Shown piece after piece: positions 428-64,000 of a DNA stretch of 64,000 nt. Each line of letters begins with the position of its first letter. Position 1 is the stretch's first letter. The notes beneath the pieces were generated by a model, which saw only the letters and a list, made by a program, of their open reading frames with translations, did no database searches and was not told where the DNA came from. The position numbers and the translations under genes are program-made. The stretch covers positions 286,998,001-287,062,000 of the forward strand of contig OZ024741.1 in NCBI GenBank assembly GCA_964016885.1, written 5' to 3'. This stretch comes from Eledone cirrhosa (Eukaryota).

Positions 428-493
428 TATTTCATTATACATATTTCAAGGGCCACCAATGCAGATTATGGTGCGCTTTCATCAGATAAAATA
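428..493 (-). ncRNA. Type I hammerhead ribozyme in the Penelope 3' pseudo-LTR
   Basis: Minus strand TATTTTAT-CTGATGA-AAG.GCACCA..TGGTGG.CCTT-GAA-ATATGTAT-A/ATGAAATA; 8-bp stem I with one G-U. Confidence 0.85.
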
Positions 494-1498
494 TAATATA
501 GATTAGTTTTATAAATAAATATTGACATACCCTGAAAAAATACAACCTTCACGGTTGGAGTTCCCTGGATAGTGGAGATATTAGATTTATTGTTGGTTTA
601 GTATGCAAATTAGTGTCGGAAAGATTTAAATAACAGTATATTTAAATTAAACCGTTGGAAGAGGGAAAAAAGAAAGAGAAAAAAAAGAAGAAAGGGAAAA
701 GAAATTGTTTATATACATTTTTGCCAGTGGGAGAGAGTAAACGTGACTATATTTAAGTGAGAGAGAATATTAGTTATAAGGACAGTAATAGCGTAATTTT
801 GTTTACGTGAGAGGAGAGAAGAAGTGAAGAAATGAATATAGCGTGGATGAATAATAGCCGGATTCATTATAATGATAGGTTAAAGAATTTTATCTAAGGT
901 TTAATTAATAAATTTGATTAAATGTTTAATTAATAATTTAGTAGTTTACTCAGTAGTTTAAATGTGTATGTTCGATTATTAAAAAATTGAAAACTTTTAT
1001 ATATTATTAAAAAAATATATTATTATTACAAAAACATATATATTATTATTATAATAAAAAAATATATATTATCATTAATTATTAATTATTAAAAAATTGT
1101 AGGTTCAAAGTATCCAAATAATTCTAAGCCCATGGGAATTCCGAGAGTTTACAGAAGAAGAATCTCTTATTTGTATTATAATAGCAGTACAGCATAAAGG
1201 AAATTATTAGTGATTTATTAATAATTCAGATAACTCTGAATTATAATTTTAAAAAAATATAAGAATATAGAAATATAAAATACACAATATAAAATATGAA
1301 TTATACATTTCTTATACCCATCAGAGGAATTTTCAAAAAATGTTCCTTAAATCTTTCAGTACGTTTATCAAGAAAAACTTTTCGAGAAAAATTTGTTTTC
1401 CTTAAGAGAGTTATAAGCAGTCATATAAAGGAATCTAATGATTTATCGATAGGTGTAATAATAATAGAGGATATTATGTAAAAGAGATGAGTTATGTA

Positions 1499-59900: not shown

Positions 59901-62779
59901 CATACTTACATTTAAGTAAGTGCCATACTAAGAGTGAGAAATGAAATTTCGTTTTCATTTTGTTTCAATTTATCGTTTTCGGTATGCCTGACCGATTTAA
60001 CTCACTCAATATGCAAATTAGGCTGCTCAGCCGTTAATTTTCATAAGGAAAGTATATACTTTCGAACGTTCAACTATCTGGCAGATGGGTAAACGGTGCT
60101 GATGATAGCTAACAAGCTTGAAACTAGTACATCGTTCCTGTGTCAGTGTTGAACAAAAAGGTGACGTGGTTGCCTTAACACCGTATGACATAAATTCAGG
60201 CTGTTCAGTTTGTTTACAAACGAACAAAGCGACGTTAGCGCCGCTAAACTGATACGTGCATATATGTATGTGTACCTGTATGCATATGTATGTATATATG
60301 TATATATATATATGTGCATGCTACTGTACGTCTGTATACATATATGTATGTACGTATACATGCATACTTACATTTAAGTAAGTGCCATACTAAGAGTGAG
60401 AAATGAAATTTCGTTTTCATTTTGTTTCAATTTATCGTTTTCGGTATGCCTGACCGATTTAACTCACTCAATATGCAAATTAGGCTGCTCAGCCGTTAAT
60501 TTTCATAAGGAAAGTATATACTTTCGAACGTTCAACTATCTGGCAGATGGGTAAACGGTGCTGATGATAGCTAACAAGCTTGAAACTAGTACATCGTTCC
60601 TGTGTCAGTGTTGAACAAAAAGGTGACGTGGTTGCCTTAACAGCGTATGGCATAAATTCAGGCTGTTCAGTTTGTTTACAAACGAACAAAGCGACGTTAG
60701 CGCCGCTAAACTGATACGTGCATATATGTATGTGTACCTGTATGCATATGTATGTATATATGTATATATATATATGTGCATGCTACTGTACGTCTGTATA
60801 CATATATGTATGTACGTATACATGCATACTTACATTTAAGTAAGTGCCATACTAAGAGTGAGAAATGAAATTTCGTTTTCATTTTGTTTCAATTTATCGT
60901 TTTCGGTATGCCTGACCGATTTAACTCACTCAATATGCAAATTAGGCTGCTCAGCCGTTAATTTTCATAAGGAAAGTATATACTTTCGAACGTTCAACTA
61001 TCTGGCAGATGGGTAAACGGTGCTGATGATAGCTAACAAGCTTGAAACTAGTACATCGTTCCTGTGTCAGTGTTGAACAAAAAGGTGACGTGGTTGCCTT
61101 AACACCGTATGGCATAAATTCAGGCTGTTCAGTTTGTTTACAAACGAACAAAGCGACGTTAGCGCCGCTAAACTGATACGTGCATATATGTATGTGTACC
61201 TGTATGCATATGTATGTATATATGTATATATATATATGTGCATGCTACTGTACGTCTGTATACATATATGTATGTACGTATACATGCATACTTACATTTA
61301 AGTAAGTGCCATACTAAGAGTGAGAAATGAAATTTCGTTTTCATTTTGTTTCAATTTATCGTTTTCGGTATGCCTGACCGATTTAACTCACTCAATATGC
61401 AAATTAGGCTGCTCAGCCGTTAATTTTCATAAGGAAAGTATATACTTTCGAACGTTCAACTATCTGGCAGATGGGTAAACGGTGCTGATGATAGCTAACA
61501 AGCTTGAAACTAGTACATCGTTCCTGTGTCAGTGTTGAACAAAAAGGTGACGTGGTTGCCTTAACACCGTATGGCATAAATTCAGGCTGTTCAGTTTGTT
61601 TACAAACGAACAAAGCGACGTTAGCGCCGCTAAACTGATACGTGCATATATGTATGTGTACCTGTATGCATATGTATGTATATATGTATATATATATATG
61701 TGCATGCTACTGTACGTCTGTATACATATATGTATGTACGTATACATGCATACTTACATTTAAGTAAGTGCCATACTAAGAGTGAGAAATGAAATTTCGT
61801 TTTCATTTTGTTTCAATTTATCGTTTTCGGTATGCCTGACCGATTTAACTCACTCAATATGCAAATTAGGCTGCTCAGCCGTTAATTTTCATAAGGAAAG
61901 TATATACTTTCGAACGTTCAACTATCTGGCAGATGGGTAAACGGTGCTGATGATAGCTAACAAGCTTGAAACTAGTACATCGTTCCTGTGTCAGTGTTGA
62001 ACAAAAAGGTGACGTGGTTGCCTTAACACCGTATGGCATAAATTCAGGCTGTTCAGTTTGTTTACAAACGAACAAAGCGACGTTAGCGCCGCTAAACTGA
62101 TACGTGCATATATGTATGTGTACCTGTATGCATATGTATGTATATATGTATATATATATATGTGCATGCTACTGTACGTCTGTATACATATATGTATGTA
62201 CGTATACATGCATACTTACATTTAAGTAAGTGCCATACTAAGAGTGAGAAATGAAATTTCGTTTTCATTTTGTTTCAATTTATCGTTTTCGGTATGCCTG
62301 ACCGATTTAACTCACTCAATATGCAAATTAGGCTGCTCAGCCGTTAATTTTCATAAGGAAAGTATATACTTTCGAACGTTCAACTATCTGGCAGATGGGT
62401 AAACGGTGCTGATGATAGCTAACAAGCTTGAAACTAGTACATCGTTCCTGTGTCAGTGTTGAACAAAAAGGTGACGTGGTTGCCTTAACACCGTATGGCA
62501 TAAATTCAGGCTGTTCAGTTTGTTTACAAACGAACAAAGCGACGTTAGCGCCGCTAAACTGATACGTGCATATATGTATGTGTACCTGTATGCATATGTA
62601 TGTATATATGTATATATATATATGTGCATGCTACTGTACGTCTGTATACATATATGTATGTACGTATACATGCATACTTATATATATATATATATATATA
62701 TATATATATATATATATATATATATATTTATTTATATATATATATATATATATATATATACATATATATATGTAGATAA

Positions 62780-64000
62780 ATCTACCAAAATATAGGGTAG
62801 TGTCCAATCCGTATGAAGAACTCAATGTAATCCAAATATCATGAAAAGAAAAGATGTATTCAATAATTATTTCGATGAAAATCACAGGAAAACAGAGTCA
62901 AGATAAATTAATAAAAACAATGAATAAAACAAAGAAACAGTTCCTTATATTAAAAAATTCATCATTTTACGATCGTTTCTAGGATATATATGTGTGTGTT
63001 GGTATGTATATCATATAGATCTATGTAAAAATTTTACAAACTATCAGAGGGAATATACATACCTACACATATATATGCTGTCTTCAGAAATAATGATAAT
63101 TGTTTATTGAAGAACACCAACAAAAATTTAATTTAATAGGTCTGTTTGGGAACAGGTTTTGAATTGACCAATAGAAGAGTAGTAAGTGGTCAAGTTGATA
63201 GAATAGTAGTAGTAGAAATTTAATTTAGAGGTAGAGGAATGCAGACTTCAGTTTTGAATGGAAATAATACTTTGAATTAAAAGATTACTTTGGGGATGAA
63301 AAGAGGTCAAGCCGGTGAAAGGTACACGAAAATTTGATGTTATTAAATAATAATGCTAATATTAAAATCGAAGGAGAATAACATTTTAGTATAAATGTGT
63401 TAGTTCGAAATACCAATCTTATTAAAAACATAAGGAATTAAGATCTATAAAAAGAAATTAAATTAATGTAATTGATAGGTATACTTATAGGGATACATTT
63501 ATATTAATTCATATAGATGTGATAAATAAGAGTTAGATGTTACTAAAGAATGTTGTTAAAAACGAAAGAAAAAAAATTGGGGGAAGGGATAAATGTATTA
63601 GTGAGAAATAACAAACTTATATAGACTACAAGGAATTTAGATTCATAACAGGAAATTAAAATAGTTTATATGTATACTTATAGGTATTAATTTTAGGAAA
63701 AGATAACTGTAAAAGGGAAATAAAATTATGCAGTTCTCAGTAGTAAAATACTAACTATAGGTTAACTAAATAAATAAAAAACTAATTATAATAATTTGTA
63801 AAATAATTTGTAAAATAAAAGTGTATATTAATTAGGTTTATAATATTTGAAAGTTCTTCTAATTCTATGATTGCACGATATAATTAATTCTTGTCGCTTA
63901 TTTAATAGGATATCCTTAGATTTCATTATTTCAAAAGGTTCCTGGGAACATAATCTACACTCATATCTGTTATTTTGATAAGGGGTGGCCCTTTTGAGCA
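62780..64000 (-). mobile_element. 3' end of another Neptune-type Penelope element, continuing beyond the window
   Basis: Minus-strand translation of about 63998-63880 gives LKRATPYQNNRYECRLCSQEPFEIMKSKDILLNKRQELI (GIY-YIG C-terminus); AT-rich UTR and pLTR hammerhead follow. Confidence 0.8.
62960..63095 (-). ncRNA. Type I hammerhead with a long stem II built from microsatellite-like sequence
   Basis: CATTATTT-CTGAAGA-C-AG.ATATATATGTGT.GGTATGTATAT..ATATACATACC..ACACATATATAT.CT-A-GAA-ACGATCGT-A/AAATGATG; 8-bp stem I, palindromic stem III, GUA site. Confidence 0.83.

Follow-up and report, generated by a model that had tools for sequence, protein, structure and literature searches.

Hammerhead ribozymes recur throughout a 64,000-nucleotide stretch of the Eledone cirrhosa genome assembly (contig OZ024741.1, positions 286,998,001 to 287,062,000), which we refer to in its entirety as the window. 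The initial annotation of this DNA singled out five hammerhead families, called A to E here, in which stem III is palindromic or nearly so, and it proposed that unrelated ribozymes had converged on this form, that cleavage would occur only in tandem transcripts or RNA dimers, and that arrays would be favoured over solo copies as a result. The locus raises the question of whether the palindromes arose independently or were inherited from one kind of mobile element, and what they would do for the ribozymes that carry them. The window is AT-rich, with many (TA)n, (CA)n and (TATG)n runs and many broken retroelements, a character that points to an animal genome, and it is probably best described as a graveyard of the 3' ends of Penelope-like retrotransposons (Penelope-like elements, PLEs) together with one PLE-dependent satellite of the non-LTR (long terminal repeat) retrozyme type. 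The explanation that we favour, and consider likely, is that the hammerheads are PLE-derived type I ribozymes, that families A to E would work as double hammerheads, and that the palindrome is an inherited PLE trait.

All five stem III segments read as the initial annotation gave them. Each spans A15.1 to U16.1 of a type I hammerhead in which the core CUGANGA/GAAA/UH surrounds a three-way junction, stems I and II are present and the ends of stem I are open, and site-specific self-cleavage would be expected 3' of H17. In the representative copy of family A, stem I consists of 6 bp followed by a bulge and distal pairs, the core lies at 56865-56871, stem II consists of a U.U and 3 bp closed by a hexaloop, and the predicted cleavage site follows 56895. 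The forward copy of family B sits in a 5'-truncated fragment of about 200 bp flanked by (TA)n runs, family D has a long stem II (fold z -4.0), and stem III of family E can form 4 bp with a CCGG loop in a monomer or 12 bp, including two G-U pairs, in a dimer.

The motifs were surveyed with a descriptor that scored stems I and II only and ignored stem III, using 60 block-wise dinucleotide shuffles as a control. At a score of at least 24 there were 29 matches, most of them copies of the single satellite, against a mean of 0.63 per shuffle, and at a score of at least 34 there were 5 against 0.08. An earlier descriptor overlooked families C and D, which have stem II mismatches, and a second descriptor recovered both; the family C motif with its core at 49949 scored 26, a level reached by 0.4 matches in the shuffles, and taken by itself it is weaker than the other four. 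A relaxed scan allowing one deviation had a high background (17 real versus 14 shuffled matches at a score of at least 24), and from it we retained families J and K, each with a second copy and an upstream PLE fragment, together with changed copies of family A. The other rows of that scan were discarded as probable chance matches. In total, ten families were counted in the window, and five of these (F, G, H, J and K) had not been named in the initial annotation. At the gathering score, Rfam gave no match in the whole window, which is weak evidence because an absent or very short loop III is poorly modelled in the alignment. A local Rfam scan of three motifs gave sub-threshold hammerhead matches for the satellite (Hammerhead_HH9, E 0.013) and for the 35728 motif of family F (Hammerhead_1, E 0.005), and none for the 49949 motif. 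The best 150 of 588 rows in an Rfam E-value scan were dominated by microRNA matches to microsatellites.

Stem III in the window measures 6, 8, 12, 16, 19 or 20 nt, and families A to E have a short stem III with a self-complementary centre. Only the centre is informative about palindromy, the outer A-U pair and the next pair being obligatory in every hammerhead. A Watson-Crick palindromic centre occurs in at least one copy of four of the six families with a 6-8 nt segment (A, B, C and D, not G or J), for which the chance probability is 0.001, or 0.011 if G-U pairs are allowed and 0.009 if the (UA)n family B is omitted. Counting each family by its best copy inflates the result somewhat, and independence of the families is not assured. 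The excess is genuine but of moderate size. The self-complementarity that was noticed does exceed chance (P 0.001-0.01). The list of examples was selective, and half of the ten families have no fully palindromic segment. The 8-nt segments of families G and J have central mismatches, J having a central A.A mismatch and being one substitution short of a palindrome, and both families look decayed elsewhere too, in the core or in stem II. Family G has a weak stem II and an inverted copy with its core at 23503 (-), and the motif has probably decayed. The loops of families K (4005) and H (52025) hold a palindromic core: stem III of K is 6 bp with a 7-nt loop containing GAGCUC, and that of the low-scoring family H, which sits at an inversion centre, is 4 bp with an 8-nt loop and a central CUAG. 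Two family A copies read AGUAGU (41877-) and ACUAGC (42840+), and these, like the imperfect sister copies with cores at 49036 and 485, are as expected of dead insertions.

In a TA-rich genome, palindromes could in part be DNA-level by-products of microsatellite drift or quasi-palindrome correction that have no function in RNA dimers. Family B invites this reading, since AUAUAUAU is a (UA)4 run amid (TA)n-rich DNA and its sister copy is imperfect. However, the excess persists when family B is left out (P 0.009), ACGAUCGU, AUGAUCAU and ACUAGU are not repeats, the family D palindrome is retained in a second, separate fragment, and the same trait has been published across phyla with dimer activity in vitro (PMC4209133). 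We regard an origin of this kind as highly improbable.

The context of four families points to descent. The hammerheads of B, D, J and K share a strand with PLE open reading frame (ORF) remnants and follow the ORF end at distances of about 1.0, 0.74, 0.75 and 1.2 kb, respectively; the endonuclease ends upstream of D and K were recovered by tblastn and a profile search, and the C-termini of B and D are identical at 22 of 55 residues. Relatives of the window ORFs carry the YRDD motif of reverse transcriptase (RT), a Cys linker and, downstream of the RT motifs, a GIY-YIG-like segment (IVY...YIG), which points to PLEs. The named relatives of one window ORF were only Octopus and Hydra proteins, with 32-49% identity. 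The PLE fragments in the window have no Pfam match and no intact ORF, and one relative has a sub-cutoff GIY-YIG match (E 0.003). Repeats were mapped by self-BLAST with masking, as (TA)n is otherwise overwhelming, and this delimited inverted arms around family J (43339-43888 and 44695-45244) and family K (3905-4772 and 5373-6240); none were seen for family B. A (TA)n or (CA)n run lies 17-230 nt beyond the cleavage site of B, D, J and K, and in 18 of 20 motifs a dinucleotide microsatellite begins within 371 nt of the cleavage site, compared with a background of 34% within 350 nt. Paired hammerhead copies are mostly head-to-head on opposite strands. Such inverted pairs with (TA)n flanks match the structure of PLE insertions; inverted, 5'-truncated copies have been described for PLEs (PMC8557442) and noted for their hammerheads (PMC4209133). 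The endonuclease-bearing (EN+) PLEs with a Cys linker, of the Neptune/Nematis type, share with the window a C-terminal GIY-YIG after a Cys-rich linker, (TA)n flanks, inverted 5'-truncated copies and a hammerhead near the 3' end (PMC8557442), whereas the window carries broken fragments only. The Neptune label can be given as a resemblance only, based on the Cys linker and the (TA)n bias.

Since B, D, J and K all stand behind homologous PLE GIY-YIG C-termini, descent with compensatory change explains them, and common descent appears at least as likely as convergence, a choice that one review describes as still debated (PMC6466107). The segments do differ in sequence, as was claimed; judging from the ORFs, "unrelated" fails for B and D at least, and palindromic, imperfect and long-hairpin stems III all occur within one PLE group. 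The strong form of the proposal, in which unrelated families became palindromic independently, cleave only as dimers and are favoured as arrays, would account for palindromes that differ in sequence and exceed chance, for named families that lack nucleotide homology outside the core and for the fact that the sole arrayed family has the shortest stem III. We nevertheless think it improbable, given the homologous ORFs of B and D, the five families without a fully palindromic segment, and published retrozymes that form arrays with monomer-active ribozymes or have palindromic monomers that are partly active.

Folding calculations bear on what the palindromes could do. Isolated stem III hairpins of families A to D were computed at +2.4 to +6.0 kcal/mol and the corresponding two-copy duplexes at -3.2 to -10.0 kcal/mol; in family E the hairpin came to +1.0 and the duplex to -18.3 kcal/mol. 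A palindromic stem III of 6-8 nt that gives no stable hairpin but pairs with a second copy fits the published double-hammerhead model. When two copies were joined in tandem mimics, the double hammerhead differed from two single folds by -13.9 (A), -8.8 and -8.4 (B), -10.6 (C), -10.8 (D) and -15.0 kcal/mol (E), by -4.8 kcal/mol in the broken family C copy (49036), and by +0.4 (F), -1.1 (G) and -1.3 kcal/mol (J). Family K gains 10.6 kcal/mol as a dimer, and the energies of family H are confounded by its own inversion centre. The real two-unit satellite transcript gave -191.0 kcal/mol as a double hammerhead versus -180.1 kcal/mol as two forced singles. The computed monomer-active fractions were 5e-4 for B, 2e-9 for C, 8e-3 for D and 2e-7 for E, and the minimum-energy structure of F and K was a complete single hammerhead, with active fractions of 0.39 and 0.30. 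Paired copies of A to E are predicted to prefer the double hammerhead to two single ones.

On the explanation that we favour, each PLE 3' end or satellite would carry a type I hammerhead that is normal for such elements. Where two same-sense copies meet, in a tandem transcript or as two RNAs, they would exchange strands of stem I and base-pair with each other through stem III, and the resulting double hammerhead would increase the cleavage of multimeric transcripts and leave a lone monomer or circle relatively uncut. The 6-nt satellite motif would probably have a strong bias toward dimers, and motifs of 8-12 nt no more than a partial one. The differing palindromes would represent a single PLE trait, inherited and maintained through compensatory change, that was lost in some lineages (F, K) or gave way there to a long hairpin. 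The array would most likely come from rolling-circle reverse transcription of a circular monomer and not from selection for dimer cleavage.

Table 1. Coordinates of hammerheads, Penelope-like element (PLE) remnants and satellite insertions in the window
Feature	Position	Strand	Details
Family A segment ACTAGT	56889-56894	+	also in other array units
Family A representative type I hammerhead	56853..56904	+	stem III ACUAGU 56889-56894
Family B hammerhead	6422..6486	+	stem III 6470-6477, DNA ATATATAT, RNA AUAUAUAU
Family B hammerhead, sister copy	428..493	-	stem III AUAUGUAU 437-444, two G-U pairs in dimer; 3' of PLE ORF remnant
Family C hammerhead	49933..50008	+	stem III 49990-49997, DNA ATGATCAT, RNA AUGAUCAU
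Family C inverted sister copy (core 49036)	48977..49052	-	stem III AUGACCAU 48988-48995, palindrome broken
Family D hammerhead (core 63087)	62959..63096	-	stem III 62969-62976, DNA ACGATCGT, RNA ACGAUCGU
Family D 5'-truncated fragment	33356..33407	-	retains GAAA, ACGAUCGU palindrome and stem I 3' strand
Family E hammerhead	40915..41013	+	stem III 40992-41003, DNA ATCACCGGTGGT, RNA AUCACCGGUGGU
Family F hammerhead (35728+)	35721..35800	+	8-bp stem III with GGGA loop
Family G hammerhead-like motif (25615+)	25602..25682	+	stem III ACCUGUGU, non-palindromic
Family H	51984..52074	both	two overlapping head-to-head copies, cores 52025- and 52033+
Family J hammerhead (45087+)	45078..45196	+	core CCGAAGA (U4 changed), stem III ACAAAUGU
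Family J inverted copy (43496-)	43387..43505	-	
Family K hammerhead (4005-)	3917..4010	-	U3-A8 covariant core UUGAUAA
Family K inverted copy (6140+)	6135-6228	+	core changed
Broken PLE ORF remnant	1499..3188	-	end of RT, Cys linker, GIY-YIG endonuclease; upstream of family B hammerhead
PLE endonuclease C-terminus	63831..63998	-	upstream of family D; ORF runs past window edge; hidden Markov model E 6e-12
PLE endonuclease C-terminus	5197..5376	-	upstream of family K; hidden Markov model E 1e-8
PLE endonuclease fragment	43906..44334	+	upstream of family J; 38% identity to family B ORF, E 2e-27
Family A satellite array, 462-bp unit	54742..62680	both	(TA)n on either side; 17 hammerheads
Older family A insertion, 422-bp unit	41580..43079	both	inverted 5' part; (TA)n on either side
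Third family A insertion, rearranged	46878..48277	both	cores 47325-, 47863+, 47985-
Family A copy at window edge	1..297	+	core 108 (CUGACGA), stem III ACUAGU 132-137

The origin of the idea that a palindromic stem III leads to double-hammerhead cleavage in tandem transcripts reportedly lies with Forster et al. in 1988. The mechanism was correctly given as established: it is a published model (PMC4209133, PMC6765202), the window families would be an ordinary new example of it, and reviews repeat it and link it to the tandem layout of PLEs (PMC6765202). Cervera and de la Pena (2014; PMC4209133) catalogued 56 motifs from 40 species, tested dimers and summarised PLE hammerheads across metazoan phyla by the consensus "GAAAN Palind NU H". 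They stated that most metazoan type I hammerheads have a helix III of 1-2 bp with a palindromic loop of 2-4 nt and function as dimers in tandem repeats; minimal PLE hammerheads were slow even as dimers. The window resembles their pseudo-LTR hammerheads in type I topology, in the palindromic 15.2-16.2 pair and loop 3, and in the placement of motifs at the 3' end of truncated PLEs, in opposite-strand pairs and mostly as solo copies. The U3-A8 core of family K agrees with the Schistosoma variant (PMC4209133), and our own parsing of the supplement to PMC4209133 gives ACUAGU for Adineta vaga and an 8-nt palindrome for Drosophila willistoni. Families B, C, D and E are unlike the minimal PLE form, which has 4 nt, in having longer or branched stems II and a stem III of 8-12 nt, and F and K have long monomer-type stems III of the sort reported mainly in fungal and protist PLEs (PMC4209133). 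A literature search found no titles on cephalopod ribozymes, most subscription papers lying outside its scope, and the window families may be uncatalogued.

Several points weigh against the explanation that we favour. A profile search, in which rows above E 0.005 were ignored, found no PLE ORF beside C, E, G or H. A flank test of 66 pairs found no cross-family pair at z > 2 among A to E, which have no nucleotide similarity to one another outside the core, so that shared ancestry of the ribozymes themselves can be argued from the ORFs only; in that test only two within-family pairs were strong, and the weak similarities between B and J (z 3.4) and between G and J (z 4.1) may reflect AT-richness. 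For C, E, F, G and H, an origin from PLEs is presumed. The unconstrained ensemble of the two-unit satellite transcript came to -197.1 kcal/mol, 6 kcal/mol below the double hammerhead; in the model the double form is the better active fold, yet it is not the predicted dominant one. The fold model contains no tertiary contacts or Mg2+, and the 2-nt loop of family A cannot be represented in it. In addition, published cleavage rates of coral and mussel retrozyme monomers are about 0.8 and 0.1 per min; invertebrate retrozymes are described as having a helix III of "2 bp plus tetraloop" and as cleaving efficiently as monomers (PMC7229834). Eight of nine Xenopus retrozyme dimers failed to cleave (bioRxiv 10.64898/2026.07.22.740005). 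In an Anolis PLE the hammerhead needed protein, and insertion in vitro could proceed without the hammerhead (PMC11167929).

Some of these points suggest that B, C, D and E could instead be mainly single hammerheads, helped by loop I-loop II contacts, Mg2+ or a PLE protein, with the palindrome a leftover or an optional boost. The active coral and mussel monomers (PMC7229834) and the protein-assisted PLE hammerhead (PMC11167929) fit such a scheme, and by analogy the 8-nt segments of the window might be placed in the "2 bp plus tetraloop" class; J and G, equally of 8 nt, have no palindrome. We think this possible but rather unlikely, because the excess of palindromic centres (P 0.001-0.01) would need selection on pairing that is useless to a monomer, the computed monomer-active fractions of B to E are low, and J and G look decayed in other parts as well. 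Among axolotl retrozymes whose helix III is palindromic, dimers cleave better than monomers, and the monomers are still 6% and 22% cleaved in one hour (PMC7229834). For cleavage in tandem or dimeric RNA, what stands is the modelled preference of 8.4-15.0 kcal/mol in A to E; the word "only" is not supported, given the active monomers already published (PMC7229834). The window offers a compact natural panel of stem III designs within a single genome, and four of these belong to homologous PLEs; such a panel would suit the measurement of graded dimer dependence.

Family A is the one family in tandem. Its array joins two blocks head-to-head, one of 3.8 minus-strand units (54742-56489) and one of 13.4 plus-strand units (56492-62680); 12 of the 15 full units are identical and three have one substitution each. 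Each unit contains one canonical hammerhead, the GC content is about 0.36, and there is no ORF of at least 120 aa in 54742-62680. In the older insertion the cores are 41877-, 42299- (core changed) and 42840+ (U16.1 changed). A same-strand neighbour within 1 kb was found for 21 of 24 copies of family A and for none of the 15 copies of the other nine families (B to K), a count in which the region upstream of family D leaves the window and in which parent elements may have had two pseudo-LTRs. The expectation that dimer cleavage favours arrays is unsupported here: nine of ten families are not arrayed, and coral retrozymes form arrays of up to 62-mers while cleaving as monomers (PMC7229834). The solo copies are truncated relics, and so are compatible with dimer use in their parents, yet they lend no support to selection for arrays.

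By its sequence features, family A is a typical non-LTR retrozyme and the best candidate for dimer use. Like newt satellite 2 and axolotl Amex1 and Amex2, it is a non-coding tandem repeat of low GC content with one type I hammerhead per unit, a helix I of 6 bp and a helix II of four positions; it shares a very short palindromic helix III with Amex1 and a U.U at the base of helix II with Amex2 (PMC7229834). A circular monomer is predicted to be self-paired, as in other non-LTR retrozymes, with 67% of the bases paired in our model. At 462 bp, the unit is slightly over one published range (150-450 bp; PMC7229834) and within another (51-972 bp; bioRxiv 10.64898/2026.07.22.740005). What sets family A apart from those retrozymes is insertion in (TA)n, the inversion of a 5' part and two recurring end points. 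All three of its insertions have this form, and they share ends at a unit offset of about 240 after the cleavage site in the forward arm and about 295-302 in the inverted arm. We found no homology of family A to the other hammerhead families in the window; the ends of its insertions are PLE-like. An Anolis PLE has two reverse-transcription start sites and a "tail" (PMC11167929), which the family A ends resemble, with a gap of about 60 nt here versus 30-40 nt there. It has also been argued that animal retrozymes derive from PLE termini (preprint 10.64898/2026.07.22.740005).

Tentatively, and with somewhat less than an even chance of being right, a (TA)n-targeting Penelope enzyme could have written the 17-unit array in one step, starting at two fixed points and reverse-transcribing round a circular 462-nt RNA, with the ACUAGU double hammerhead acting as a gate that cuts multimers and spares the monomer circle, while the PLE group switched between dimer-type (B, D) and monomer-type (K) hammerheads. 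If true, this would provide direct sequence evidence on the enzyme that mobilises animal retrozymes and would define a template for use in vitro. A very young retrozyme array with PLE-type ends bears in any case on the open question of how retrozymes are mobilised.

Within the array, the units at 57789-58250 and 60099-60560, which lie five units apart, carry an identical single substitution at unit offset 89. It is missing five units further on, and the pattern may reflect later unequal exchange or an assembly effect. The offset-240 end of family A lies within a predicted hairpin arm.

Other PLE and RT remnants were also seen. The family K element (3905-6240) has inverted arms of about 870 bp with a PLE endonuclease tip at its centre, and further 3' remnants lie at about 50248 and at 53929-54046. 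Directly after the family J element there is another thumb/linker/endonuclease remnant (45595-46386, +), downstream of which no hammerhead was found. A second, distinct RT remnant with an RVT_1 match and a Cys-rich C-terminal part (36710-37623, +) lies about 1 kb downstream of family F; it could not be aligned to the family B ORF, and a link to family F would be conjectural. Candidates at 26392-, 18062+/18828-, 15633-, 39948+, 20640+ and 21280+ were not counted as families, having a low score, no match or an imperfect junction. The first of these (26300-26400, -) is hammerhead-like and has a good 8-bp stem II, but its stem I/III junction is imperfect; it may be what is left of an eleventh family.

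The rest of the window holds repeats of other kinds. A broken non-LTR retrotransposon (27130-32037, -) gave domain matches to AP endonuclease, RT and zf-RVT, with a region resembling ORF1 upstream, and from its domain order we take it to be L1/Tx1-like; a degenerate 71-bp purine-rich minisatellite (32097-32992) lies immediately upstream of it. Long inverted or duplicated segments between microsatellites, with no counted hammerhead, occupy 23798-25294, 16771-20324, 7428-9547 and 13473-13883. The segments 14268-14738 and 15596-16018 (-) resemble remnants of another retroelement ORF, with no Pfam match. Finally, a dispersed repeat of about 190 bp, SINE-like (short interspersed element) in size, is present in at least five copies (12014-12201, 18920-19108, 20659-21058, 26587-26718).

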